A DNA stretch of 64,000 bases from Octopus vulgaris (taxonomy: Eukaryota), in contig OX597814.1 of the NCBI GenBank assembly GCA_951406725.2, positions 102,610,001 to 102,674,000 of the forward strand. Reading direction: 5' to 3'. This document shows positions 32,090-61,538 of this stretch, piece by piece. The position numbers and the translations under genes were made by a program. Position 1 is the stretch's first letter. Each line of letters starts with the position of its first letter. The notes beneath the pieces were generated by a model. That model was not told the origin of the DNA and made no database searches. It saw nothing but the letters and a program-made list of their open reading frames with translations.

Positions 32090-33374
32090 CGAGGGACGTT
32101 CAATAAGTAATGCCTCTGATCCACTTGCAGTTGTTTGATCTAGCTGAAATTTTGCATGTGCAATCATTTATATCTCTATAGAGTAAGTGGCAAATTACAG
32201 CTCTGAATGGTTTCTGATTTACAGGTGTTTGAACCGAGTCAAGTGTGAAATGGAGCCTGTTGAGTGTCGAGCAGTGATCCGGTTTTTGTATTTGAAAGGA
32301 CGCACACCACGGGAGACTTTTGATGAAATGAAAGTAACTTATGGTGATGATGCCCCATCATATGACCTTGTAAAACGCTGGCATCGTGAATTCAAACATG
32401 GTCGGAACTCTGTGGAAACAGCTCCCAGATCTGGTCGCCCCCCTTCTGCCATTGATGAGGCATCTGTCCGTCAAGTTGAGGCTGCCATTTTGGAAGATCG
32501 ACGCATAATTATTCGCCAAATAGCCCATGAGGTCAAGATTAGTACCGGGTCTGTGTAAACTATCATTCATGACCATTTGCATATGCAAAAGGTGTCTGCC
32601 AGATGGATTCCCAGGTTGCTCACGCCTTTCCAGAAGCAAGAACGCGTCGAGTGCTCGAGGGTGAATTTGGAGATGTGCCAAGTAGATGAGTCAAAATTTT
32701 TCAAAAGACTGATTACACAGGATGAAACCTGGGTCCATCACGATGATCCAGAGACCAAAGCCCAGTCAATGCAGTGGAAGCACCGTGACTCACCCCCTCC
32801 AAAGAAGGCAAGGGTGCAGCCCTCCGCTGGCAAGGTCATGCTCACAGTCTTCTGGGACCAGGACGGAGTAGTGATGACAGATTTCCTGGCAAAGGGTACC
32901 ACAATTGCAGGAGCCTATTATGCTTCACTTTTGAGGAAATTAAGAGAAGTTATCAAAATCAAGAGGCGGGGCAAGATCAGCAAAGGCATCCTCCTCCTGC
33001 AGGACAACGCTCCGGTCCACAACTCGCTTGTCGCCAGATCAGAAGCACAGGCGTATGGCTATGAAATCCTCCCCATCCCTCCTACTTTCCTGACCTTGCA
33101 CCCTCTGATTTTCACCTCTTCCCAATCATGAAGTTGTTTTTGAAAGGAAAGCGTTTCTCAGATGATGCAGCCTTGATTTCTGAAGTCACGTTGAGGTTGG
33201 AGGACCAAGCTGGGTTCTTCTACAAAAACGGTCTCCAGAGCCGCATCAAACGATGGGAGAAATGCGTAACTCTGGGTGGTTCCTATGTAGAAAAAGACTA
33301 ATAACTATGCCAAGTTTCGTTGCTCTACTGCTATGGGAAGTGGGTCAGGGGCATTACTTATTGAACGCCCCTCG
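32090..33374 (+). mobile_element. Full-length mariner DNA transposon (~1285 bp)
   Basis: TA TSD; TIRs CGAGGGACGTTCAATAAGTAATGCC / GGCATTACTTATTGAACGCCCCTCG. Confidence 0.97.
32250..33301 (+). pseudogene. Mariner DD34D transposase, one premature stop (32556-32558) and one frameshift (~33075)
   Basis: HTH N-terminus, WIPRLL, TQDETW, LQDNA, PDLAPSDFHLF (after the shift), RWEKCV..GGSYVEKD*. Confidence 0.93.
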
Positions 33375-40750: not shown

Positions 40751-43110
40751 TTGCGTAATCGAGTGTTGAACCAGATTCGATACGAAAAGTCAGCTATTTG
40801 TTCAAATCTTCCCGAAACGCAGGAGCAGGAAGTAACCCACAACCGGCATATTCCAACAGATGACCATCAATGCTCAACATCAAATAGCCAAAAGACAAAG
40901 AATGAAAAATGGTCTAGGGGAGATAATAATGAAGTTCTTATAGCCTTTTATCATGCCATATATTTCCCCACAAATAAATCTAATACTAAACAAACCTACT
41001 TAAACTGGAGACAGAAACACCTTGAAGTAAGATCCTACATAGACAGTAACAAACTTGCCAACATCAGAAGAAACATTATGAGAAAGAAATTAATAATTGA
41101 ATTAGAGATTGACCAAATTAAACAATCAGTAAGGGATAAAATGAACGAAGTTGCAGCTAAAGAAGATACTACAGAGGAAATAATTATAGACCAGCCCAGG
41201 GCTGATGTAAACGCAATAATGATTGAAAGGATTAATGTAGCTGATAATCAAAGTGAAATACTCTCTGAACCAACCATAAACACTAAGGCAGATGAAAATC
41301 AAATAGATGAAGAAAGTCACACAGAAATTGACCCAACAGAACTACATGATATAAAAAAATCAAATCATGATTGAATGGTTGAAAAATAAAAAAACTAGTA
41401 TGAATGAACACAACAATCTCCCAAAAATTTACAATTCTAACCAAAACCTGAAAATAATTGGTAAAATCTGCCTTGTACTTAAGGATATAATTTCAGCTAA
41501 TGATGTTGATATTACAGATCTCAACCACCTGTACTATGCATCTGCAATTCTATGTGGTGAAAAGATTAGAAAACGACAACATTCCCACAAAAAGCCTGCT
41601 TGGCAAGAGCATATTCAACATCAAATTCAGCTACTTATGTCTGACATAGAATGTTTAAAAAAAACCTTAAGTTTGACAAGACTATCAAACCAACAAAAAT
41701 CCGAAAATTAAAAAATATAATATGAAAACCATATTTGACATCGATACCATCATAAAAACCATCAAGCAAAAGGTATGTGCTAAAGCAAAGTATGAAAAGC
41801 ACGTTAGATTCTTCAAGGACAACAACATGTTCAAAAATAGCTCCAAAAATTTGTACTGGAAGATAAGGAAAATACCAGTAAAGTCTGTTCTATCAAAAGA
41901 AGAAGTGCAGGAATTTTGGAATAAAATTTGGGCAGAAGAAAAAACACACAAAGAAAAGACCCTTTGGATTGATAGAATATCTACATATTTAGACTCCTTA
42001 GAAGAGCAAAAGTGGGAGGGTATCAAGGTAGAGGATGTAAGATTTGCTCTCAGGAAGTCAAGCAAATGGAAGTCTCCAGGAAAGGATAAAATTCCTAACT
42101 TCTGGCTGAATCCCTTCCCAGAGAGTCATGAACTGCTAACAAAACTTTACAACAATGTTTTGCAACAACCTAGTATGATTTCCTCTTGGCTAGTTAATAG
42201 TGTAGCATTCCTACTTCCAAAAAATGAAGAAACAAATGGACCAAAAAATTATAGACACATTACCTGCTTAACAACAATGTATAAAATGCTGACATATGTC
42301 TATACCTATAGTTTCTTAAGAGAAAGTGGCATATTCCCTAATGGTTGCAAAGATCAGCTGCTCATCAATAAGATGATCTTGGAAGATTGTCACAAATGAC
42401 ACAAAAACTTGTGGATAGCCTGGATAGACTATAAAAAAGCTTTTGATAGTCTACCAAATAGCCGGATTAAGAAATGTCTGGAAATGTATAAAATAGCACC
42501 TACTCTGTGAAACTTCTTGTCTGTAAGTATGAGATCATGGAGAACAACACTGACTTTGAACAGTGACAATGAATCTCTTAATGCTGTAGATGTAAGAATT
42601 TCATGTGGCATTTTCTAGGGGGACTCTCTATCACCACTCCTCTTTTGTCTAGCCTTAATATCTCTCTTGAAATTGCTCAGTGATGTACAGTACGGTTATA
42701 AAATGTTTGATAAAAATATAAATCATCTCATTTACATGGATGATCTAAAGCTTTTTGCAAAAAGTGACCAACAACTACAAAGCTTACTAGTGATTGTTAA
42801 ACAATTCAGCGATGACATCAGGATGCAATTTGGCCTCGATAAATGTGCAAAGGCTACCTTTATCAAAGGAAAAATGACAGAAACATCCAATGTTAATCTT
42901 GACCAGCAGAGTGTGGAGAGCTACAAATACCTAGGGGTATGTGAAGGGGATGGAATCAAACATTCAGTGATGAGGGAAAGGATCAGAAGAGGATGTTATT
43001 GCAGAGTAAGGGCAATACTCAAGATAGAGCTGAATGCAAGAAACAGGATTGACGTGGTCAATACTTTAGCCATACCAGTCGTGACTTACAGTTTCAATAT
43101 CATTAACTGG
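40751..43110 (+). mobile_element. R4/Dong-clade non-LTR retrotransposon, fragmented, 3' truncated
   Basis: Myb-like KWSRGDN; WKSPGKDKIPNFWL; NYRHITCL; IDYKKAFDS; NHLIYMDDLKLFA; FGLDKC; YKYLG. Confidence 0.85.
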
Positions 43111-44589
43111 TACTCAATTTATCAACCCTGAAAGGATGAAGGCAAAGTGGACCTCGGTAAGTGCGGCTGTTCTATATCAGTCGAAATAAATCACTGCACC
43201 CTACTATGGTATCAAGTCCTTTGTCTATCGCTCCTTAATACCAAGGCATGTCTGTTCTCTTCTATTTTTAATTCTATTTTCAAGTCTTCCAGTAAGGAAA
43301 GAGTTGGAATGTAGATGGGAAAAAAAAATAGATGTTGAAATTGAGAAAAGTCTTGTACATATTTACTGTTGTGCTTACAGATTGTATATGTAATGTGCAT
43401 GTTAGCTTACTGATTTCTCCATTTGAAAACCCCAGCTTTTCCAGACTCTCACCTAAGCACTTACGAACAAAACCAGGTGCACCAATTATGGTTGATATAA
43501 AGGTGAATTTATAATCTGGGTATAGAAGTTGAAAGTTTCGAAGTAGTTGACCATTATATAGTATAATTAACTGAAATTATTCGTGAAATTAGTTGGAAAA
43601 AAATTTCTTTAGGTGCGTTTAAAATCTAGAAATAAATAAATAAATGAATAAATAGATAAATAAATAAAGAAAGAAGGAAAGAAAGAAGGAAAGAAATCTC
43701 AGTAATTAATTATAATTTGCAGATGGAAGTATTAAAGGAACAAACATGTGTCCAATCTTATTAACACTCCTCAGAGCAGGCTATTACATTTAATTGGCAG
43801 GATCAAGATAGAGCAATGTAGATATACACACATTCAGACATACAAACATATGTACACACACACACACACACACAAATAGAGTGTGTAATGATACTGATTT
43901 ATGAATGCCAGCAATGTGAGTGAGGGTAAACACCTCAGGGGAAACTATTGCATTCTACATACAAGTACGGTAGTCTCACATATGTAATATAATAAACTGA
44001 AAAACATATATTACCTCAGATTGTCTATAGAACTAGAGAAACGAACAAGGACAAACATGCATAATACACACAAGCACGCACAACTACATACAAATGTGCG
44101 CGCGCATGTGCGTGTACACGCAGGCCTATGCCACCCACTTTCTCTTTCTCTATATATATATATAATATATAAATAATATATAAATATATGCATATATACA
44201 TACATATATGTACATACCTACATATATATGTATATTCGCCATGGTAGATCGGTAGCCACTACACACATTTTATCTCTCCTTGTTTCTCTCGTTTCTTTCT
44301 GTGTTCCTTTCTGTTGAAGAGCGTAGGCTCGAAACGTTAAAGACTTTTTTTCAATTCCCGAGCGTTATACTAATCCATCTGTTTGTTTTCTACCACAGAT
44401 ATATTTTAGATATATAAACAAGGCTAACTTAGCTATTTCTCCGTAGACTGTGGTCAACCTTAATCGATTTTCGAATCTTATTGTTATCTCATCCAGGGCT
44501 ATTACATACTCAACATTTCCAGTAGCTATCGAAAACTGGGGCTACTAATTTGGACAACCTAAGTGTTAACACTTAGATATTCCTCATAA

Positions 44590-46055: not shown

Positions 46056-48427
46056 ATATATATCTGTATATTTATACATGAATGTTCATCGCCTGAATAT
46101 CCTCAGTCTTTATTTCTCTTTATTTTCATGTATATATGTATGTATATCTTATATATCTAGCCCAAGCGGTTTTATTTGTATATTTGCATTATTATCTCCA
46201 TATTCTGTTCACCTGGATTCCTCTTATAGCCATTCCTTACTCCGCGGACTTGGCCCTCGGTAAGATTTTAGAGTATAAGTTAAAATCATTTGAACACTAT
46301 TGAATAATATTATTAAAGTCTCACATTGACAGAATACCTTGGAATTTTATAAGAGTCAAAATGAAGTAGTGGAGTTCATAACGTTTTCCTTAATATTAAC
46401 GATGTAAATTCATATTTTAAGTCGCCGACAAAATACTGCGTAAATTTTCCGCAAATCACCCTCTTATCGTCTTAGAAAAAAGTGTATTCCTTTGCGCACA
46501 TTGCCAGAGAAAAAAGATGCGATCGTTACGGTTAGAATGCACTGGTCATCTGTCTAACTTACCTGGGAGTAAAGAAGAACACCACAGCATATACCATAAT
46601 GTCAGAAAATATTAATTTAATTTTTATTTTATTCGTAACAGAATTAAAAAGTACAAGATTCGAGTATTTTGTAATATTAGTGCATGTTAAATAGTTTCAA
46701 TAGAAATTTGAAACAATAACGCACATATTTTGTACAAATGCTATCTCATGAAAAAAAGTATACGTTAAGCTATGAATTGTAAGGGACTTAACTGTTGTTA
46801 AATCCATAATAGCCTCCCTTGGATCGAATAGTAAATGCTTGAAAAAAGTTAACTCAGTACTAGGTTGTCCCCAATTCTCTCTTTCTCTCTCTCTCTCAGT
46901 CACACACCCATACATACATACAGACAGACAGACATACACACATACACACATACAAACATACACACAGAAACACATACATACACACACACATACACACACA
47001 TACGTACAAAAGCAACAGAAAATGATGAGTGTTCTCCAAATGCAATCCATTAGTCGCTCAGTGAAAATTTTTAAGACATTCCAATGATTCTCTGAGTTTT
47101 TTTAGGTGAACAGACGTATATACTTCTGTGTGTACATCAACAGCTCAACCAACACGCCCACTCAACCACATATGTACTAACACCGGGAAATCTCTTAACT
47201 CAAAATGTCTTCTTTCTCGTTATTTATTTTTCCTATTACCTAAATATATTCGCAAATTTTAGTATTTAGTTCACTTTTTTTCTATTCCATGGCATTCACT
47301 TCTTTCCTCTTCCATTCACATCACTTCTGGTCTGATCCCTTTGCTCTCGTATTTGACTCTCACATTTTTGCAGCATAAAATAGGACGACAACCGGTGCAC
47401 GGCTGCACTACACTGTACTAGCCTTGCATATTCTTGCTCTCTCCTTTTTGTATTGCTCAGGCACTGGCTTATCTTTGGAGTTTTCTGACCAAATGCCATT
47501 CAGAAAATAGAAAATTAATTCATTTTCAAGAAATTAAGAAAAAAAATGATAAAAACGTTTCATACTTTATCATGTGAGATTTGGCTGTTGCTTCTAGCAG
47601 GTGCAACCACAATTGAGGCTGTGTGACGATTGCAGGGAGGAGTGAAGCTAAAGGGTAAGAATCGTAATATTAAAAAAAAGCGAAATTTTTAGATGTCAAA
47701 CGAAAAACTAATTAGTGATGAAGAGAAGTGTTCGATATTTATTGATAATATATTATAAACACTTCGATCTATTATTTGCATTAAATCATATTTGGAATTC
47801 TTCACAAACTGCGCAGTAAAACAGATTTTATTTTGCATAAAAGAAAATAATACAACGTAAAGTATACTAGCCATCTCAACATGGCTAACCACTAAGGGTG
47901 GGTGTTACTGTAGCTTTTAGCCCCAGGAGATCATTGTCTCCAGCTGGCTTTAGGCACACTTTCTGTGCTCTTATGGTATTTGCAAAGGGAGGTCATCCCT
48001 CTCTCGTCAACCTAAGTGATACGCACGGACTGCAGTTTCTAGGTATTTGCCTGTCTTCGACGTACGGCAATCACCGGTTTTCGATGAATTTATCTTTATT
48101 ATGATCAAGTGATCTAACATAGAATTGGGACATTACAGAACAAAACAATTACAAAAATGCTATGCAAATTCGAATGAAATTATAAAAATTACAAAAATAA
48201 AATTTTACGTAACTTGAACGAACACTTGGCTTACTTTGCCTTGAAACGAAACCTTGGCTTACTTTTGCCTTTATCACGAGAACTTTTAGTGCGTATGTTT
48301 TCTTTTTTTTTATTATTTTTTTATTTTAAACAGTTATGTACAGTGAAAGGGAATGGGAGGTACCAGTTTCAATTTTGAACCCGGCAGTCTATAAATCCCA
48401 GCAGCTGATTTTTCCTTTCCTCGATGA

Positions 48428-51400
48428 TTAAGCTGGGTTACTCTCACCCACCTTTCTCATCACATCCTTCCAACGTTCCATATACTCTTTCTGTGGCAGG
48501 CTCCTCTTCTCCAACCCCATCTTGCTCTTCAGATGATATCCGAAGTATTTTAACAAACCGGGGCCAGAGATAAAGGACCCTTTCACTAGACCTTCCAATC
48601 TAGTTCTCCATACACATTCTTTCAATACTGCCACCGTACAGTAAAAACAAGCCTTACCTTCCTTTGAGTGTCCAGTTGGCGGTATCATCTTAATCATAGA
48701 TCCAGCCGACAGCTGTACTCGTCCCAGATGCGACAACACGTGTTCAACGTAACTTATCAAGCCTGACAGCTCCCGTCATTGTACAAAAGCGTGTTGAACG
48801 GTTTCATCGTCCAACCCACATCTTGGACACGTCGGTGGCACTAACATTCTGTGCCTGGATAACTTCTCGCGAACAGGTAATGCATTCCTATAGCACTGCC
48901 AGGTCAGGGATTTTTGGTAATTATCCAAATACCCTGACCTGAAAGTCTTCTTAAACAGGTTGGAGAGTTGATCCTCATCGAACCCCAGAGCCCCTCCTAG
49001 GACGTCGTCATTTTTTTCCTTCTACCAGCCCTTTATAGAACACCGAGGTGGTATTCCCGTTGCCGGCCTTGCCCATCTTGTGGATCAGCCAGAGTGCCTG
49101 TCGGCACTCCTTCTGCCATGAAGTCAGGTTACGTCCTTTAATGAGACCGGGTGTAAATCCCTCCATAGAGGCCGGTCGCGGGAAGAATTCCTCTGCCAGC
49201 GAACTCCACACCTTATCATCCTCCAGGTAACACCAGAGGTGTCTCAGCCTCAACGCATGCTTGCGCATCATTAGCCAAGGCATCCCCAGTCCACCCTTTA
49301 GCGGTTCCTGGCAACACACGGAGCGCCTCACAAGTGGCTTTCCTCCTGTCCACAAAAAGCGGAAAAGGAGTCGTTCCAACTTGTTTAACCACGAATCGGG
49401 GCAAGGCACGACGGTCAGGCGGTAGGTGACGACAAAGGCTATAAACATCTGTGCCACCTCCGCCCTCCCTTTCAAGGAAAGATGCCTTCCGGGCCACTTC
49501 CGTACTATGGCATCCACCTTGCTCGTTACCTCGCTCCAATTCTTCTCCGTCTGGGAGTCTGGACCAAACCAGACTCCGAGCAATTTAACGGGACCATCCG
49601 TCCAGTGTCCAACAACACTGGACGGTATCGGCTTGTTCCTCCAGGTGCCGAGGCGCAAACCGATGGACTTGTCCCTGTTAACTTTTGCCCCTGCCACCGC
49701 TTCGTATCTATGGAGAGCACCTGCTACCCGAGGTAGCTGTGTTTCGTTGGACACGATGAGGGTGACGTCATCCGCATAGGCAGAAACAGACTTACCGCAG
49801 CAATGGCTCAAGAGCCAAAACATACAGGAGCGGGGACAAGGGGCACCCTTGACGAACTGAACGCTTGATCGAAAACGGCTCCGTTAGGTAACCGTTTATC
49901 TGGACTGTGGACTTGATGCCGCTGTACATAGCTGAGATCCACCCGCAGAAGCCAGGGCCCAGCCCAGCCGCTTCGAGGACCGCCGCCAAGTACCGATGGT
50001 CTACCCTATCAAACGCTTTACTTTGGTCTTAATGGCCCAATGCCCCTCCTTTGCCGTCTAATTTCCCGACCCTATCTATAGTGTAGTGGAGAAGGTGAAG
50101 ATTCTCCTGGATCGATCTGCCTGGGATTGCACATGTCTGTGCCTTCCCGACAAGTTTCTCCACGACAGCCGTCAACCTTTTTGCTAACACCTTGGCCAAA
50201 ATCTTAAACTCTACATTAAGTAGAGTTATGGGCCTGTAATTACTAATACTGTCCCCCTTGCTCGGGTCTTTCTGGACCAGCGTCACCACTCCGACTCACA
50301 GAGTTGGGAATCCTCCCATTCTGTTGCCAGTTTGCATAGACGCTTACCAGTATGTCCCCGAACAAGTCCGGTATACAACAATAAAATACATAGGGCAGAT
50401 CATCCAGCCCCGGCGACTTTTCCCCGGCGCACTCGGCCATAACCCCTCTTACCTCCGCAGGAGAGATCGATCCTTCACAGCACTCCGCCTCACCAGCCGA
50501 GAGCCGAGGCCCACCAGCTAGGAAGTCCTTTAAGGTCTCCCCACGCTCGAGCGGACCACCGCCCCCAAACAGCCGTGCGAAATGCTGGTGAAGGACCTTC
50601 TGCATCTCCTCCTGTCCATAGATCTTGCGGTCCTGCTCGTCAGTTAAGGACATAATACAGGACTTTTTGCCCTTCTGACTCTCCTCACGACGGGCCCATC
50701 CGGCAACGTTAATACCTTCTCGTTTTCCTGCACATAACTTAGCTCTGACTCTACACCCCTCGTGCTTGGCGTTGAGGTGACAGTACAATACCGCTCTCGC
50801 TGCCAACACTCCAGATGCACAGCCAGATTCCATAGCCTCGTCTAAGTTCTTAACTAATTCGCCCTCTATTCTAGTCCTATCTAAACTTAGCTGTTTGCTA
50901 AATCTAATGGACTCCAAACGGATGGCTCTTTTGAGGGCGAGCCACCATCTATTATTAATGATGGTGCCACATAATGCCCTCTGTACTAATTCCTTAATCC
51001 GGGTACGGAAAGCTTCACAAGTCAAAATAGACTTGTTCATTTTCCAGTACCCGGGACCTTGTCTATGGCATTTATCTACCTGTACCTCACACGTCACAAG
51101 TTTGTGATCCGTGTAAGGCACAACAGAGAATTGTGGACAGCTAACACTATTCCTATCTCGTTCCTTAACAAATACTCTATCTATGTACGATCTGCGTGAG
51201 CCGTCGTTATTACTCCACGTCCACTGTGGAACGTTCGGCTCATCCAGTCGAAAACGGTCTACTAGATTAAAGCTCGCTAGTAGAGCCTTGAGGCCAGGAT
51301 TCCCCTTCCTATCGCTCGAACCTACACTATCCACCCGCGCATCGAGAATGGTGTTGAAATCCCCTACCAAGACTACCGTTTTGGACGTCACTAGAAAGTG

Positions 51401-51772
51401 CTCCAGTTCCCGAAAAAAACCGAACTGCCCACGTCCATTAGGAGCGTAGACAGCCACCAACCTGAAGGACTGCTTACTCACGTGCGTCACATCTAGGACA
51501 ACCAGCCTACCTTCTGGGTCCAGAAAGACAGTACTTACCTGTAAGTCTAAGTTCTTCCTGAAAAGAACTGCCACGCCTGCACCTCCCTCTCGGCTAGGAG
51601 AAATAAATTTCTCGTAACCATTGAGAAGTGGTGAGAACGCTTGGGGTCCTTTCAACTTGGACTCGGTAACAATAGCTACATCGATTCTATGTGGAATGAG
51701 GTCGTCCCGAAAACAAGCATGTTTCCATTTCGACCCCATTCCACGCACATTTATACAACCTAACTTAATCAT
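48428..51772 (-). pseudogene. Tx1 A ORF2 (APE endonuclease, RT, zf-RVT), frameshifted
   Basis: INVRG, VYAPN, GDFN, SYIDR, TDHK, SPGLDDLP, NYRPITLLN, RQGCPLSPLLY, AYADD. Confidence 0.92.
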
Positions 51773-52186
51773 CGAAAAAAAGAAAATTATTTACTCACGG
51801 TTGCAAGAGGGAGCCTGACAGATTCCTTCTGCCTGTCTTCCCCCCCACTCGCCGTTGCTGCTGGGCGTTTCACCGGCGTTGCCACCGGGCTCTGGGTTGG
51901 TGTGGCTGCCGGGCTGACGTATAATTTCCCAGTTGTCACTTCCTGGGTGACATCCTTAATGAAGCCGGCTTTTACGAGGTCTTGTAAGTTTTTTCCTTTC
52001 CATCCTTCTTCGCCGACCCTTGCATATCGCCACTCCGCTTCCTTCTCGGTCGCTTTGTAGCCCTGATCAGCATACTTGCTTGCACAAATTTTGCTACTCT
52101 CTCGTTCCTTGTGGTGTATGCTATAATTTTTTCATTGGGTTTAAACCCTTTTACAGTTGTGGGGTGGGATTTGTTAAAGTGCTGGC

Positions 52187-53311
52187 CTATAAATGTAGGA
52201 CCGCCGGGGTGGGATTGGAGAATATTTTTAATTTGTTCGTCTGCGTTGTTTTTTGTTTTTTTTTTGTGACAGGTGGGGAGTCAGGGGTGATGGATTTTTT
52301 TCCTTTTGTTCGACACGTTCGTGAATTCCATATATTTGTTTTTGTTGTATTAATTTCCTCCTCCTTTCCTTTCTCATTTTGCATTCCGTTCTTGTCTTCC
52401 TCCTTTTTGGAGTTCGACCTGTTTTTTTTTTTTCCTCCTTGCTTTCGCCAGTCGTTACATTGTTCTCCACTTTGCTGCTTTCTGCGTTCTTCACAGCGGT
52501 TTTTTTTTGGGGGGGGGGGGGCGTTGCCTGTATTATTTTTCTTTGTGCAAACGGAGCGAACGTGGCCCTTTTGCTCGCACTTAAAACATCTGGGCCTGCG
52601 TCCTTCCACCGAAACTCGTATGGAGTGCCCCTCCCCCACGAAGACTCTGTCTGGTAGGCTTTCCAGCGTCGCATTTTCCGCCTGAATAATCATCTCCAGC
52701 TGCTGGCCTCTCCAGTGTTTTGCAATTTTCCTCTTCATACTCAAAATTGTCAATTTTGATTCAACATCAAAAATGACCGCTGTTGCCGCCCACATCACGT
52801 CGTAGCCCCTTGGTATATCTTCTAGGGTCACTTTTGCTGTTCTGCACCCTAAATATAAGGGTAGTAGTATTATATTCTCGTTTTTCAACGTTTGCGTCGA
52901 AATTTGCCTTGCTTCTTCCGCCGTCTCAAAATGCGCCTCCACTGTAGCGCTTCTTGCACCTCGGTTGACATGACGAACTTTACTCCATATTGGTGCCATA
53001 CACTTTTCGACCATTTCGTTTTTTACGTCGGTCATTCGTTTTTCTTTTATATTGTACACCTTGTAGGTGACCATTTTTTCCTTTATTGCCTGTATAGTTT
53101 CAGGGGGCGGTACCAACCGTGTTTCTTCACCACTTTTTTGCACCAGCGGTCTGAACTTGAATAGTCTTTCCATTGACACCTCCATTTCTCCCACTTCGCC
53201 ACCTACGGCGTCTGAAAAACTGGGTTTTGCCTGTGTTTCCTTTTGTTTAACAGTTGTTATACCTTCTCCCATCTCGGGAAAGTCTTTTTTTGAACTTAAG
53301 TCTAATTCCAT
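52187..53311 (-). CDS. Tx1 A ORF1 (gag-like, CCHC zinc knuckle)
   Basis: CFKCEQKGHVRSVC; homologous to the copy B ORF1; C-terminus possibly frameshifted. Confidence 0.85.
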   Translation of the reverse strand: MELDLSSKKDFPEMGEGITTVKQKETQAKPSFSDAVGGEVGEMEVSMERLFKFRPLVQKSGEETRLVPPPETIQAIKEKMVTYKVYNIKEKRMTDVKNEMVEKCMAPIWSKVRHVNRGARSATVEAHFETAEEARQISTQTLKNENIILLPLYLGCRTAKVTLEDIPRGYDVMWAATAVIFDVESKLTILSMKRKIAKHWRGQQLEMIIQAENATLESLPDRVFVGEGHSIRVSVEGRRPRCFKCEQKGHVRSVCTKKNNTGNAPPPPKKNRCEERRKQQSGEQCNDWRKQGGKKKNRSNSKKEEDKNGMQNEKGKEEEINTTKTNIWNSRTCRTKGKKSITPDSPPVTKKKQKTTQTNKLKIFSNPTPAVLHL

Positions 53312-53820
53312 ATTAGACAACACAAACTTGTCACAAATGACAAGAGAATTTTTTTCAAAAATAACCTATGCAGGTTAAGAGTTCACACAAAAAAAAACAC
53401 ACAGAAATTTTCTACCCCGAAGGGCGAAAATTACTGGGTCAAAAACAGTTCAACAATTATATTACGTGTAACACAACAAAGTAGACAAACGGAAACGAAC
53501 TCACACAACGATTTGCAGCAACAGAAAGATATTTGATATACTCCGAGGAAAATTTCAAAAAACACCGGTTTTCGATGATAATTCTTTATTATGATTATAA
53601 AATCAGTACATAGAAGAACAATACAGAACATACATACAAAAAACAGTTAAGTGGTTCGTTTAAAAATTTCCAAAATATATGGATTATTCATTATACAAAA
53701 AACTGTATATAAATTGTCCTTTGCATTGACTAATATAACATTACATTGGATTGAAATCTTACCGATATATTTTAAACCCCGGCAACCCCGCAGCTTTCCT
53801 TTCCTCTTCTCCATCCATAG

Positions 53821-56800
53821 TTAAACTGGGTTTTTGACACCCACCTTTTTCGCCACTTCCTTCCATCTTTTTCCATACACACCTCGTGGTAAGGTCTTCT
53901 TTTCCAGCCCCATTTTGCTCTTCAGATGATATCTGAAGTAAGTGAGCAAGCCGGGGCATGAGACAAAGGATCCTATTGCGACTCCTTCCATTCTTGTACG
54001 CCACATGCATTCTTTTACTACTGCAACCGTGCAGTGAAAACATGCCTCACCTTCCTTCGAGAGTCCAGTTGGCGGTATCATCTTAATCATAGACTCAGCC
54101 GACAGCTGTACTCGTCCCAGATGCGATAACACGTGTTCTGTGTAACTTATCAAGTCTGACAACGGCCGACAGTGTACAAAAGCGTGCTGGACGGTTTCAT
54201 CGTCCAACCCGCATCTTGGACATGTCGGTGGCACTGAAATTCCGTGCCGCGATAACTTCTCGCGAACAGGTAAAGCATTCCTATAACACTGCCAGGCCAA
54301 GGATCTTTGGAAATTATCCAAATACCCCGTCCTGAAAGTCTTTTTAAACAGGTTGGTAAGTTGGTCTTCGTCGAACCCCAGAGCCCCTCCTAGAACGTCG
54401 TCGTTCTTTGCCTCTACCAGCCTGCTATAAAATACCGAGGTGGTATTTCCGCAGCCGGCCTTGCCCGCCTTGTGGATCAGCGTGAGTGCCTGTCGACACT
54501 CCTTTTGCCATAAAGTCAGATTCCGTCTTTTGATGTAACCGGGTTTAAAATTCACTAAGGAAGCCGGTCTCGGGAAAAATTCCCCTGTCAGCGGACTCCA
54601 CACCTTATCACCCTCCAGGTGGTGCCAGAGATGCTTCAGCCTCAGCGCATGTCTGCGCATCATCAACCAAGGCATTCCTAACCCACCCTTTAACGGTTCC
54701 TGGCAGCAAACGGAGCGCCTCACAAGTGGCTTTCCTCCCTTCCACAAAAAGCAGAAAAGGATTCGCTCCAACTTGCTAAGCCATGAATCGGGGCAAGGGA
54801 CAACGGTCAGGCGGTAAGTGATTACAGATGCAATAAACATCTGTACCACCTCCGCTCTTCCTTTCAAGGACAGAAACCTTCCGGACCAGGTCCGTACTAT
54901 GGCCTCCACCTTGCCCGTCACCTCACTCCAATTACTCTCGTTTGGGAGTCTGGCCCAAACCAAACTCCTAGCAACTTAACAGGACCGTCTGTCCAGTGTC
55001 CCACGGCACTGGACGATATCGACTTGCTCCTCCATGTGCTGAGGCGTAAGCCAATCGACTTGTCCTTGTTAACTTTTGCTCCTGCCACCGCCTCGTATCC
55101 TCTGATAGCATCTTCTACACAAGGTAGCTGAGCCTCATTGGACACGATGAGGGTGACGTCATCCGCATAAGCAGAAACCGTCCTCCTGCCTCCGATCTCA
55201 TCCGGGTTACTTCCCAGCCTCTCCAACTTTCGCAGCAATGGCTCGAGAACCAACACGTACAAAAGTGGTGACAAGGGGCACCCTTGACGAACTGAACATT
55301 CGATCGAAAACGGTTCCGTTAGGTAACCGTTTATCTGGACGGTGGACTTGATGCCGCTATACATTGCGGAGATCCACCCGCGAAATTCAGGGCCCAGTCC
55401 AGCCGCTTCGAGGACCGTCGCCAGGTACTTATGGTCTACCCCATCGAACGCTTTACTTTGGTCTAAATGGACCATTACCCCGCCCTTGCCGGTTAATTTA
55501 CCCACCCTATCTAAGGTGTAGCGTATAAGGTGAAGATTGTCCTGGATCGACCTGCCTGGAATTGCACATGTCTGTGCTTTCCCTACAAGTTTCTCCACGA
55601 CAGTCGTCAACCTTTTTGCTACATTAAGTAGAGTTATGGGCCTGTAATTACTAATGTTATCCCCCTTGCTAGGGTCTGGATTAGCGTCACCACTCCCCGG
55701 CTTACATTACTGGGAATTCTCTCGTTCTGCTGCCAGTTCGCGTAGACGCCTGCCAGTATTCCCCCGAACAAGTCCGGTATACTTTGATAAAACTCGTAGG
55801 GCAGACCATCCAGCCCCGGCGACTTCTCCCCGGCGCATCCGGCCAGTACCCCCTCTATCTCCGCGGGAGTGATCGCTCCTTCACAGCACTCCACCTCACG
55901 CCCCGAGAGCCGCGGTCCGCCGGCTAGGAAGTCCTTTAAGGCCCTCCCCCGCTCCAGCGAACCACCACCCCCGAACGCGCAGGCGAAATGCTGGTGAAGA
56001 AACTTTTGCATCTCCTCCTGTCCATAGATCTTGTGTCCCTGTTCGTCAGTTAAAGACTTGATTGAAGCTTTGTTGCCTCTCTGACTCTCCACACGGTGGG
56101 CCCATCCGGCAACGTTAATACCTTCTCGTTTCCCTGCGCGTAGCTTAGCTCTACAACCTTCGTGTTTGGAGTTAAGGTGATGGTACAATACCGTCCTTGC
56201 TGCCATCACTCCGGATGCAGAGCCAGATTCCATTGCCTCGTTTAGATTCTTAACTAAATCGTCCTCTATCCTAGACCTATCTAACCTTAGCTGATTGCTA
56301 AATCTAATGGACTCTGAACGAATGGCTCTTTTGAGGGAGTGCCACCATCTATTGTTAATGATGGTGCCACATAATGCCCTCTGTACTAACACCTTAATCC
56401 GGGTACGGAAGTCTTCACAATTCAAAATAGACTTGTTCAGCTTCCAGTACCCGGGTCCCTGTCTATGACACTTATCTAATTGCACCCTACAAGTCACAGA
56501 TTTGTGATCCGTGTAAGGCACAATGTGAAACTGTGGACAACTAAACGTATCCTTATCTCTTTTCCTAACGAATATCCTATCTATATACGATCTGCGTGAG
56601 CCGTCGTTATTACTCCACGTCCACTGTGGAACGCTCGGCTCATCCAGTCGATAACGGTCTACTAGATTAAAGCTCTCTAGTAGACCCTTGAGGCTAGGGT
56701 TCCCCTTCCTATTGGTTGAGCCAACACTGTCGACCCGCGCTTCGAGGACAGTGTTAAAGTCCCCTACTAAGACTACCGTTTTCGACGTCACTAAAAAGTG

Positions 56801-57172
56801 CTCCAGATTCCGAAAAAACCCCGACTGCCTACTCTCTTTCGGAGCGTAGACAGCTACCAACCTGAAGGACTGTTTACTTACGTGGGTCACATCCAGAACG
56901 ACCAGCCTGCCTTCTGGGTCCAGAAAGACAGTACTTACCTACAAGTCCAAGCTCTTCCTGATAAGGACTGCCACGCCCCTTCCTCTTCTTCGGCTAGGAG
57001 AAATAAATTTCTCGAAACCATTTAGAAGAGGCGAGAACGCTTGGGCCCCGTTCATCTTGGACTCGGTTACAATAGCTACGTCCACTCCGTGTGTCGTGAG
57101 GTCGTTCAGGAGACAAATTTGTTTCCATTTCGACCCCATTCCGCGCACATTCACACAACCCAGCTTTGCCAT
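53821..57172 (-). pseudogene. Tx1 B ORF2 (APE, RT, zf-RVT), frameshifted
   Basis: VNVRG, GDFN, TDHK, SPGLDGLPYEFY, DQSKAFD, AYADD, CPRCGLDDETVQHAFVHC. Confidence 0.92.
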
Positions 57173-57555
57173 TGTCGGAGAGAGAGAAAAAAAAATAAAC
57201 TTACGGTTGGGACAAGGAGCATGACAGTTTAAATCTGCATGCTTCCCCTTCTTCCTCCCTTGTGGTCGTAGCTGCAGGGCTCTTAACCGGCGTTGCCATC
57301 GGGCTCTGGGTAGGTGTGGTTGCCGGGGTTATAGTAAGTTTACCCTCCAGTATTTCGTTAGTAACGTCTCTGATAAGGTTATTTTTTAAATGTTATTGGA
57401 GTGTTTTTTCCTTCCACTCGTCTTCCTTTATTTTTGCAAAACGAGTGGTCGACTTAGTGTCTGCAGACTTACTGAATAATTTCAGTTTTGAAAATTTAAA
57501 ATACTTGAACACTCTTTCGTTTTTCTCGTCGAATGCTACAACCTTTTCATTTTTT

Positions 57556-58635
57556 TTAATCAATTTTTTCCAATCTTGTTTTATGGGGAGGGGCTTGGCG
57601 AACTGTGTTCCAATGAATAGTGCCGTGGGGGTGGGGCTGGGGAATTTGTTTTGTATGCATCTCTGCGAGGTTTGCAGATTTTTTCTTTGTTTGGGGAGGG
57701 GAGTCCAGGGTATTTTCTTTTTTTCTTTTGTGTGTTACCTGTGTAAATTCCATTTGTTCATTTTTATCTTCCGTTTCGGTTCCCTTCCTTGTCGCAGTCT
57801 TGGGGTCTTTTTCCGCCTTTTCTTTTTCTGTGTTTGAAGCACTTTGAGGAGGGGCTTCGCTGTTTTTCTTTTTTTTTATGCAGTTCGAGCGGACGTGACC
57901 CTTTTCACCACATTTGAAACACCTACGTCTGCGCCCCTCCACTGACACTCTCATTGTAATTCCCTCCTCAATAAATACCCTATCGAGTAAGTTTTCTAGC
58001 ACATTATTTTCTGCTTGAACGAGGAGTTCGAGCGCTTGTCCCTTCCAGTTTACCTCCTCTTTCCTTTTCATCTGCAGAATTGAGACTTTCTGCTCTACGT
58101 CGTGCAGAACCACCGCTGCTACCCACATTATATCATATCCTCTTGGAATGTCTTCCACATATAGTTTCGCAGTTCTTTTTCCCATATATGTAGGTAGTAA
58201 CATGATGTCCTCACTTTTTAAGGTCATCGATGAAATCTCTCTTGCCACATCAGCCGAGTCGAAATGTGCTTCAACGGTAGCGCTGCGGGCACCTCGACCG
58301 ACGTGGCGAATTTTGCTCCACACTGGGGTCAAGCACTTCTCTACTATTTCGTTCTTCACGTCCATTATTTTTTTCTCTTTGTTACTGTAAACCTTGTATA
58401 CGACTATCTTAGCCTTTATTTCCTGTAATTTCGCTTGCGGCGGTACCAGTTTAATTTCATTGCCTTCCTTTTTTACCAAGTTCCGGTATTCGAATAACTG
58501 TTCAATTTTAAATTCTACTTCCGTTATGTTTCCGCCACTGCGGCCGAAAAAGACTGTTTTTTTAACCTCGATATCCTTCTGTTCGCCTTTTCCCATCACG
58601 GGAAAGTTGCTCCTCGACGCCAAGTCGAACTCCAT
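57556..58635 (-). CDS. Tx1 B ORF1 (gag-like, CCHC zinc knuckle)
   Basis: CFKCGEKGHVRSNC; RGARSATVEAHF shared with copy A. Confidence 0.85.
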   Translation of the reverse strand: MEFDLASRSNFPVMGKGEQKDIEVKKTVFFGRSGGNITEVEFKIEQLFEYRNLVKKEGNEIKLVPPQAKLQEIKAKIVVYKVYSNKEKKIMDVKNEIVEKCLTPVWSKIRHVGRGARSATVEAHFDSADVAREISSMTLKSEDIMLLPTYMGKRTAKLYVEDIPRGYDIMWVAAVVLHDVEQKVSILQMKRKEEVNWKGQALELLVQAENNVLENLLDRVFIEEGITMRVSVEGRRRRCFKCGEKGHVRSNCIKKKKNSEAPPQSASNTEKEKAEKDPKTATRKGTETEDKNEQMEFTQVTHKRKKENTLDSPPQTKKKSANLAEMHTKQIPQPHPHGTIHWNTVRQAPPHKTRLEKID

Positions 58636-59026
58636 TTCTCAAATTATGAGAACCAATTTTTCAATAAAAAAAAAATTACCCCGAAGGTAATAACAATGTT
58701 TATACACAGAATTTTCAGCCCCGTAGGGCGAAAATTACTATCACACAACGGACAACTGTTCAATTCACGAGCAAACACAAACAACGACGAACAAAAAACG
58801 AACTCACTCAACAAAATAGGCAGCTAACTTCTCAATACGCAGATGAAAGAGGGGTCCCTAGACGAGTCAAAACACCGGTTTTCGATGAAGTGAGACCGTT
58901 TGCAAATCCTTATTTATGGTTTTTCCAGTAACTTTTCGTCACTGATTTCGAAAAACTGTCTGCAAGCAATAATAAATCTCTGAACGAGATGTAAACAGTA
59001 ACTGCACTAGCCATCTCAATATGGCT

Positions 59027-59835
59027 CTTAGTCAGTGTCTTAGTCAGCTGAGTACTTGACAGACACTGACTTTGCTGACGACATCGCTCTTATCAGTGAT
59101 TCTCTCTCCAATGCCCAGTCTCTTTTACAATCTCTTGAACAAGCCTCAAATTGTGTAGGTCTTTACCTCAATGAGGCCAAGACTGAATACATAAACAAGT
59201 GCCTGTCCAACAGTGATTGCAACAGCCATACTCTCAACAATGCGCCCTTAAATATGGTTTCTGATTACAAATATCTTGGGTCATACATATCATCATCTGA
59301 AAAAGACTTTCTAACTAGAAAGGGTATGGCCTGGTCAGCCTGTAATGACATGCATAAGATCTGGTCATCAAATCTAAGTAGAGACTTCAAACTTGAAATA
59401 TTCAAAGCCACAGTCGAACCAATTCTACTATATGGCTCAGAAACCTGGACGTTATCAAAGAAGCTTGAGAGGCGGTTGGATGGAACCTACACTCGCCTCC
59501 TTATAAGAGCTCAAAATCTCTCGTGGAAGCGCCATCCAACCAAAATGCAAATATATGGGAAACTACCACCTGTGTCATCTCTTGTGAAAGGTAAGAGAGT
59601 CCAGTTTGCTGGACATTGTTGTAGAGCTGAAAAAGAGGTAATTTCTACTCTTCTCCTCTGGAAGCCATCTACTCGCAATACCAGAGGGCGCACACTCTCC
59701 TACCCTGATGTAATCTCCAGGGATACAGGCATCCAGCAACAGGACCTCCGTAATGCCATGATGGACCGTGAAGTCTGGCGTAGCATGGTAAATTCCATTG
59801 TCTCGACCACGGTCGAACAATGATGATGATGATGA
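59027..59835 (+). mobile_element. 5'-truncated RTE-type LINE with open RT C-terminal frame
   Basis: DFADDIAL, YKYLGS, LLYGSETWTL; (TGA)n tail; 11-bp TSD TCAATATGGCT (59016-59026, 59836-59846). Confidence 0.9.
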
Positions 59836-60318
59836 TCAATATGGCTAACCACTAAGGGTGGGTGTTACAATAGTTACTATTCTTACCGTTTCAACGTTGA
59901 CGCCTCCCACTACATCGTATACTCTTGCATGTCTCCGCCCATTTTTGCTTCCTTCATTAACTCATACTCTTCCTCTATTGGTAAATATATTTATTATTCT
60001 CTCGCGCTCTCTCCCTCTTTGTATGTCTCTCTCTCTCTCTTTCTCTTCGCCTCCATCTCTCATCTCATCATAAATTACTGAATGCTTCCCCCCCCCTCCC
60101 TTGCTTTCTGTCTTAACTCCCCTGTTCTCTTTCTTATTAAACACAAATAGCATTTTCTTTCTCCCGCCCTCAAAACATATCCACCCAATTCTCCCTCTTT
60201 ATCTCCTTTCTCTCGGTACTTCATTATATATTCATTTTAACCACTCTGGCTACCTTACTATATCGTTCACCTCATCCTCTCCCTCACTTCCTAAACGTAT
60301 ATATATATATATATATTT

Positions 60319-61538
60319 TTACATTATATAAAAGGGCTTAGTAAAATAAATTACTTTGCCGCATACTGAACTCATTAGAAATAGCAGCTGAAAAACTTTT
60401 TTAAAGCTATCTCTAATACTTAAAGAAAATCTCTCTCATATATAGCGTTTGCTTAATTCAACTCACAAAAGTTTGGGGGTAAGGACATTAAAAAATCAAA
60501 TGCTAAGGTTATTTGAGAACGTACGTTTCAAGATTAGTCAAAACAACACTTCTATCATCAGCTCAGAAACTCCTTGGTTTGGATTTGGAAACACTGAAAG
60601 TAAGAACATACCCTTTCGAAGATCCGCTCGTAACTAACAGTGCCAACAAACCCAAATAAGCAAGCGAAGAATTTCTGTTCTCCCCTTTCCACCAGCGTGG
60701 GTTAAAACCATCAAACGCTATGCTTATTTCGGTAAAATCCGAAGCATTAATTAGAGGGAGATTAATTATAATTTCAACAATTGAGGGTAAAATTAATTAA
60801 TTATTAATCAATTTCACCAAGTGTTCAGTATGCAAAGGGACCTTTTATATAATGTAATATATAAATGTAATATATAAAGCCCTTTTATATAATGTAATAA
60901 TTTGAATTCGCCTTAAATGGTCCCTTTGCATACTGAACACTTGGTGAAATTGATTAATAATTAATTAATTTTACCCTCAATTGTTGAAATTATAATTAAT
61001 CTCCCTCTAATTAATGCTTCGGATTTTACCGAAATAAGCATAGCGTTTGATGATTTTAACCCACGCTGGTGGAAAGGGGAGAACAGAAACTCTTCGCTTG
61101 CTTATTTGGGTTTGTTGGCACTGTTAGTTACGAGCGGATCTTCGAAAGGGTATGTTCTTACTTTCAGTGTTTCCAAATCCAAACCAAGGAGTTTCTGAGC
61201 TGATGATAGAAGTGTTGTTTTGACTAATCTTGAAACGTACGTTCTCAAATAACCTTAGCATTTGATTTTTTAATGTCCTTACCCCAAACTTTTGTGAGTT
61301 GAATTAAGCAAACGCTATATATGAGAGAGATTTTCTTTAAGTATTAGAGATAGCTTTAAAAAAGTTTTTCAGCTGCTATTTCTAATGAGTTCAGTATGCG
61401 GCAAAGTAATTTATTTTACTAAGCCCTTTTATATAATGTAATAATTTGAATTCGCCTTAAATGGTCCCTTTGCATACTGAACACTTGGTGAAATTGATTA
61501 ATAATTAATTAATTTTACCCTCAATTGTTGAAATTATA
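60319..61538. mobile_element. Young non-coding Penelope/retrozyme-like insertion: inverted copy + 1.2 tandem 544-bp monomers in (TA)n
   Basis: 60319-60842 is the reverse complement of 60919-61441; 60877-60994 is repeated at 61421-61538; (TA)n on both flanks. Confidence 0.8.
61192..61250 (+). ncRNA. Putative minimal type I hammerhead ribozyme (mirror copy 60511-60570 on minus)
   Basis: TGAG-CTGATGA-stem II-GAAA-CGTACG-TT-CTCA; palindromic stem III; atypical U.U at 10.1/11.1. Confidence 0.55.

Follow-up and report, generated by a model that had tools for sequence, protein, structure and literature searches.

A 64,000-nt stretch of the Octopus vulgaris genome (contig OX597814.1, positions 102,610,001 to 102,674,000 of the forward strand), hereafter called the window and used in full as the coordinate system, contains a short non-coding repeat that is interrupted by two tandem long interspersed nuclear elements (LINEs A and B) and, close to one end, by a LINE of the RTE type. 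The repeat, here called the unit and classed below as a retrozyme, carries a type I hammerhead motif; the unit, its hammerhead, and both tandem LINEs are all read on the minus strand. The features of the locus are the following:

47852..48085, minus strand: 3' part of the retrozyme with the target site (+1 = 48085), running to the tail-less type of 3' end (reference 278 to 45); 97% identical to a natural monomer from locus L004, end type found in 56/137 segments
48016..48074, minus strand: type I hammerhead motif with a non-canonical core (48060-48054; U3 C4 G8) and a predicted cut between 48028 and 48027; from alignment and pair counts, with canonical CUGANGA cores in other copies
48072..48085, minus strand: copy of the 14-bp target site downstream of LINE A (sequence match)
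48086..53562, minus strand: Tx1-like LINE A, full length, with broken frames; Pfam endonuclease and reverse transcriptase (RT) domains, 90-95% identity to five relatives in full-length matches
53563..53576, minus strand: copy of the 14-bp target site separating LINE A and LINE B (sequence match)
53577..58872, minus strand: Tx1-like LINE B, full length, with broken frames; ~82% identical to A over open reading frame 2 (ORF2; Pfam and alignment)
58873..58886, minus strand: copy of the 14-bp target site coinciding with the predicted start of transcription (+1 = 58886; junction alignments)
58887..59026, minus strand: upstream part of the retrozyme, containing the junction between monomers (58964/58965) and a deletion of 17 nt (59005/59006; alignment to the reference, contig set)
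58940..58946, minus strand: core ATCAGT resembling a proximal sequence element (PSE), beginning at 58946, i.e., at -60 from the target +1 (58886); same hexamer in the U1/U2 promoters of the genome, invariant in 28/28 occupied units
59027..59836, plus strand: young, 5'-truncated RTE-type LINE with a (TGA)n tail and a 10-bp target-site duplication (TSD), without target specificity (Pfam, alignment, other RTE loci)
59837..59868, minus strand: rest of a partial second retrozyme copy (reference 69-101, up to the 5' truncation point), without a second hammerhead (alignment)

The retrozyme segments correspond to ~1.16 monomers (reference positions 45-356, followed by 1-101), with 17 nt missing at the head-to-tail junction, where only three letters separate 59005 from 47852 in a public contig set. 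The initial annotation of the window had described a terminally redundant element of ~340 bp, composed of 47866-48087 and 58889-59005 and followed by a repeat of its first 43 bp. The two pieces indeed sum to 339 bp, and the repeat, inside whose second copy the RTE sits, is 42/43 identical after removal of the RTE and its TSD (59017-59026 / 59837-59846). Because of the 17-nt deletion, however, 340 and 43 are local values, and the true monomer measures ~356 nt. The proposed boundaries also shift: alignment to the natural monomer places the left end at ~47852 and not at 47866, and copies of the unit stop ~10-14 nt or ~60 nt past the minus-strand CTAG that had been taken for the end of the element. 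No TSD of at least 7 bp flanking the whole insertion in the window was seen by eye. The 14-bp target is present three times (48072, 53563, and 58873). The main feature, a minus-strand hammerhead of type I, had been overlooked. The window copy is probably inactive, because its single hammerhead is non-canonical and the LINE frames are broken; since the partial second copy lacks a hammerhead, the locus could not release a monomer.

The unit is multicopy: two genome searches returned 3154 and 2567 first-look candidates, and a 24-mer motif of the unit has 615 exact matches in the genome, compared with 0 for the reversed control. A natural head-to-tail copy (L004) yields a monomer of 356 nt, and two hammerheads lie 354 nt apart in L043/L044. 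The monomer is non-coding, contains a type I hammerhead, and is repeated head to tail, which are features expected of a non-LTR retrozyme; its fold has a z-score of -5.4. At the family level, the hammerhead comprises three stems, the core C3-U4-G5-A6-N7-G8-A9 / G12-A13-A14, a NUH site, and an open stem I. Among 24 copies hand-picked across subfamilies, 93.9% of the cells are paired and eight pairs show two-sided changes; none of 500 shuffles attains this, a test that is inflated by the relatedness of the copies and uses a structure specified by the analyst, and slid controls are 18-50% paired. Covariation between positions 3 and 8 of the core is seen across 59 distinct copies (C-G 42, U-A 10, U-G 6, C-A 1), and loop III is mostly palindromic (TGCA 41, TATA 6, TA 4, CCGG 1), a condition typical of repeat-type dimeric hammerheads (PMC3088659). 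The unit is a covarying type I hammerhead repeat with predicted self-cleavage; the copy in the window departs from the canonical core at positions 3 and 4. Rfam scans yielded nothing meaningful in the window or in unit-bearing loci; matches to microRNAs fell on microsatellites and a palindrome and were discarded.

The ends of the unit were surveyed in the first 100 listed of the 615 matches to the 24-mer, which represent 93 loci; 80 of these, with 137 segments, were examined. The 3' ends fall into two clusters (116/137), with 60 located at the monomer end and 56 located ~47 nt short of it. The 5' ends are scattered; in the 80 loci they do not concentrate sharply at either the cut site or +1. 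More than one monomer is present head to tail in 25 loci, inverted outer segments occur in 47 (32 of them with one end of each type), and (TA)n flanks as well as 10-15-bp TSDs are frequent. This combination of incomplete tandems, inverted copies truncated at the 5' end, a tail of ~47 nt at one end, and a preference for microsatellites is the anatomy expected of a passenger of Penelope-like elements (PLEs), for which such tandems, such inverted copies, and a tail of 30-40 bp have been described (PMC8557442). On account of this anatomy, its size, and its ribozyme, the unit is filed as a retrozyme without long terminal repeats (non-LTR retrozyme), and mobilization by a PLE appears likely. Fragments of PLEs were encountered in seven unit- or LINE-derived loci among those searched; three were checked by coordinates, and the geometry of a partner was found in none. 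PLE families with a GIY-YIG domain are abundant in the genome (L175, L177-L185, L187, L189, L190, L193-L197, L200); they have a U3-A8 hammerhead-like motif of their own near the 3' end (matched by regular expression), often end in (TA)n, and include many open frames of 781 aa.

Both tandem LINEs combine an apurinic-type endonuclease with a reverse transcriptase (APE-RT LINEs; Pfam Exo_endo_phos and RVT_1), whereas zf-RVT and a weak zf-CCHC just under the cut-off were matched only in B. The best PDB match of their proteins is LINE-1 ORF2p (E 2e-14), and the only named homolog is a protein of Argonauta (59%). Similarity to the L1 group and a domain layout in line with that of the Tx1 clade (ORF1 with a zinc knuckle, ORF2 with APE, RT, and a zinc finger) suggest that A and B are Tx1-like. 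Their targeting was surveyed with LINE-only queries in 30 loci of 40 scored, including that of the window. The 3' end of B abuts the same 14-bp site in 30/30 cases, 27 of them in the unit and three in tandem behind another LINE, and so does its 5' end (30/30; 28 in the unit and two in tandem). The 3' ends of A (n = 30) lie in the unit in 20 cases, at the first base (+1) of U2 small nuclear RNA (snRNA) genes in four, in tandem behind another LINE in five, and elsewhere in one; the U2 genes were identified with the Rfam U2 model at 164-185 bits. Another LINE, Keno, inserts at a site internal to U2. In 13/19 paired copies of B, the two flanking copies of the 14-bp TSD are the same; the 5' and 3' target copies differ in the other six (e.g., L242/L082, L244/L090, and L257/L101), some of which may have been templated by donor RNA. 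The copies of B are 95-97% alike and thus more similar to each other than their host units are to the reference (74-95%), which indicates repeated, independent insertions and not the amplification of one composite. Occupancy by A or B amounts to 2/80 loci plus 3/13 others, or ~5% of the 93.

If a LINE is called target-specific when a single target accounts for >20% of its flanks (PMC4494074), B (30/30) and A (20/30 in the unit plus 4/30 at U2) are target-specific. The RTE is not: the unit was found near 0/29 other RTE loci, and the insertion in the window is due to chance. The initial description of the unit as hit three times is therefore literally accurate, but targeting applies only to the two LINEs, and the RTE drops out of the proposed system. 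The idea that a multicopy monomer with a partial copy serves as a recurrent landing site in a nested parasitism holds up for the two LINEs, as the unit is multicopy and other copies carry LINEs as well. Its designation as a safe harbor is incomplete, because family A also inserts at +1 of U2 genes.

Several further insertions deserve mention. A third Tx1-like family (L271, L272, L273, L274), whose ORF1 is ~25-33% identical to those of A and B, occurs in tandem with A, and L274 and L313 hint at yet another target, whose start sequence differs. Clusters of U2 snRNA genes (L267-L270; C3 at 20.77-20.84 Mb and C23 at 43.31 Mb) contain several A insertions at +1, and two U2 repeats of the array on C23 each carry a retrozyme fragment of 62-64 nt.

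A possible reason for the choice of the site emerges from a comparison with the promoters of 17 U2 and 15 U1 genes (after removal of duplicates and of two LINE-occupied U2 sites). The hexamer ATCAGT (ATTAGT in one variant) starts at -57 to -61 in all of them (17/17 and 15/15), and in 28/28 occupied units it starts at -57 to -62 relative to the target. In the latter, column conservation of the hexamer is 1.00, compared with 0.78-0.79 for positions -53 to -1 (probability of chance occurrence ~0.001 for a five-base window). The L004 monomer has a mutated hexamer and was therefore uninformative when scored with the matrix. The second line of evidence comes from the full-length A copies at U2, all of which (4/4, on two contigs and with two promoter types) carry the U2 14-mer and, directly after it, a 14-mer of the retrozyme type that starts at the same ATCG. 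The simplest reading is that the founder of these copies was transcribed from this A in a retrozyme host, from which it then switched to U2. It is likely that the 14-bp site represents the start of the unit's predicted snRNA-type promoter.

Taken together, the observations are best explained, with a probability of roughly 0.78, by a dispersed ~356-nt hammerhead repeat (a non-LTR retrozyme that is likely mobilized by a PLE) in which two Tx1-like LINE families insert at a single 14-bp site, the likely start of a predicted snRNA-type promoter. RNA polymerase II (Pol II) would initiate at the A of the 14-bp target, with hammerhead cleavage following 58 nt downstream; tandem copies of the unit would release monomers, which may circularize, and the RT/GIY-YIG protein of a PLE would copy the RNA of the unit into new sites, often (TA)n. 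The endonuclease of the LINEs would nick an AT-N7-YGG-like start sequence common to the retrozyme and U2, so that the inserted LINE would lie behind the host promoter and its RNA would begin with the target 14-mer. Each insertion would regenerate the target, allowing LINEs to stack as they do in the window. A more far-reaching scenario, which is somewhat less probable than its negation, envisages a Tx1-like lineage specialized on the +1 base of SNAPc-type promoters, for which the ribozyme parasite would be a renewable supply of promoters. Its members would switch between retrozymes and U snRNA genes, leaving the 14-mer of the previous host as a 5' fossil, and would choose their target by endonuclease recognition combined with pairing of the first 14 nt of their RNA.

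Several points weigh against the favored explanation. Transcript start, cleavage, and circle are all predictions, and membership of A and B in the Tx1 clade is putative. The region upstream of the hexamer core is likewise conserved (0.89-0.91); the unit matches only a 6-9-bp core of the U1/U2 element and not its 3' half, and the matrix scores of the units are mostly 6-10, compared with 18-24 for real U1/U2 promoters. Moreover, the occupied units share ancestry, so that the conserved hexamer reflects a single lineage, and the four A copies at U2 share one identical extra 14-mer and therefore record a single event. As for the ribozyme, U4C is the most common core near the subfamily of the window (31/122 rows) and reduces hammerhead activity in vitro (PMC3088659), and the hammerhead models of Rfam gave no score for it in the window or in unit-bearing loci. 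In the partner search, which covered the top 30 among 148 scored matches to GIY-YIG (out of 6136 candidates), no locus resembled the unit by blastn or by local alignment compared with shuffles, and the tail of ~47 nt exceeds the 30-40 bp of the PLEs in PMC8557442.

Among the alternatives, the one to be taken most seriously, although it is improbable, is that the endonuclease merely reads a 14-mer that resembles the 5' ends of U2 and U1 by coincidence, in which case the site would not be a transcription start and the LINE would have its own promoter. The +1 14-mers of retrozyme, U2, and U1 share the pattern AT-N7-YGG and are alike enough for such sequence-only recognition, one copy of A (L133) lies at an unrelated ATCG, and tandem LINEs use target copies that lack a hexamer directly upstream. 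Against this alternative stand an invariant ATCAGT at the distance found in snRNA genes and a leftover 14-mer that starts exactly at the +1 A. Far less probable is a role of the hammerhead in processing the LINE RNA, either by setting its 3' end 58 nt downstream or by moving as a composite with the LINE. The LINE is always co-oriented with the hammerhead and located just 5' of it, and one chimera (L273) ends exactly at GUC. Yet the downstream unit sequence stops at the cut site in 0/27 unit-flanked B loci, which makes it less likely that the hammerhead creates the 3' end of the LINE; the TSDs enclose nothing but the LINE and in most cases agree with the host sequence at the locus, and U2 sites lack the hammerhead altogether. 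In the chimera itself (L273 = L139; C16, 20.78 Mb), a stretch made up of the target 14-mer and the hammerhead's 5' half stops precisely at GUC, where it joins a member of the third Tx1-like family that is slightly truncated at its 5' end. This single case may represent a fusion of cleaved leader RNA with LINE RNA or, alternatively, a microhomology deletion, and its bearing on self-cleavage is only a hint.

The initial annotation had favored a satellite or a rolling-circle (Helitron-like) DNA element that serves as a passive safe harbor for three retrotransposons, an explanation that is now largely refuted and has the lowest probability of all. A hairpin and CTAG near one end and the head-to-tail partial copies are in line with it, but the copies are dispersed, often inverted and 5'-truncated with scattered 5' ends, and have two fixed 3' ends and often TSDs. 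In addition, the hammerhead covaries, and the RTE is untargeted. A Helitron or Helentron is further rejected because the ends of the copies do not coincide with CTAG but lie beyond it, and TSDs of 10-15 bp are common, in place of a hairpin-CTRR end without TSD. The circular intermediate that had been considered alongside these options is compatible with the identity of the unit as a retrozyme.

Elsewhere in the window, a long palindrome of ~1.1 kb (60315-61445), whose arms are 94-99% complementary, is located to the right of the locus, and fragments of a Pfam Transposase_1 domain and of another RT are present at 32559-33131 and 42619-43131. The genome as a whole measures 2.8 Gb in ~30 large contigs and abounds in microsatellites.

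The retrozyme reading adds a new class of target for site-specific LINEs, a ribozyme-bearing retroelement that is apparently entered at its transcription start. It also implies a three-tier dependence, of the LINE on the retrozyme and of the retrozyme on a PLE. Near-identical copies of a LINE in the retrozyme or at the +1 of U2, with the trace of a switch, make target change by site-specific retrotransposons directly testable. Finally, the LINE junction shows where the promoter of an invertebrate retrozyme is likely to lie; a mapping of such a promoter was not found in the literature examined.

There is precedent for each component of the system: retrozymes, Tx1 elements in other transposons, and an snRNA-type promoter in a hammerhead repeat. 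Like the non-LTR retrozymes of metazoa (PMC7229834; bioRxiv 10.64898/2026.07.22.740005), the unit has a non-coding monomer in the size class of 170-400 nt (350-400 nt in mussel), a type I hammerhead, head-to-tail copies, a stable fold, and a proposed Penelope origin. Unlike them, it consists mostly of dispersed insertions of one to two monomers with inverted, Penelope-type ends, and its RNA and circles are predicted. Four contig sets, three of them presumed to derive from RNA, contain the unit, the LINEs, and the RTE, but they are uninformative on transcription start, strand, and level and are not counted as evidence of expression. The preprint mentions neither octopus, cephalopods, Tx1, nor a promoter. 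With PLEs and their pseudo-LTRs (pLTRs; PMC8557442), the unit shares partial tandems, an inverted 5'-truncated copy, a tail at one end, the preference for (TA)n, and the hammerhead; it differs in the absence of an ORF, in the ~47-nt tail, and in the lack of a sequence match to the 30 GIY-YIG PLE loci. Satellite 2 of newts, likewise a repeat that bears a hammerhead, has an internal Pol II promoter of the snRNA type (Coats et al. 1994, cited in PMC2220036); the promoter of the unit is predicted from sequence, and no report of LINE targeting was found for satellite 2. Nor was any report found of LINEs that target retrozymes or the +1 base of snRNA genes, although Repbase entries, subscription papers, and the supplements of PMC4494074 and the preprint may list such targets.

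The closest parallels to A and B are the target-specific Tx1 LINEs (PMC4494074), namely Xenopus Tx1 in Tx1D (piggyBac), crocodilian Tx1-Mar in Mariner-N4, Tx1-9_AMi in Harbinger, Tx1-8_Crp and Tx1-4_AMi in LTR elements, and Keno in U2. As in A and B, an APE-RT LINE occupies a fixed site in a mobile element or an snRNA gene, and tandem insertions sandwich a TSD. In the octopus, however, the target is a ribozyme-bearing retroelement, and one and the same LINE family uses both the retrozyme and the +1 of U2.

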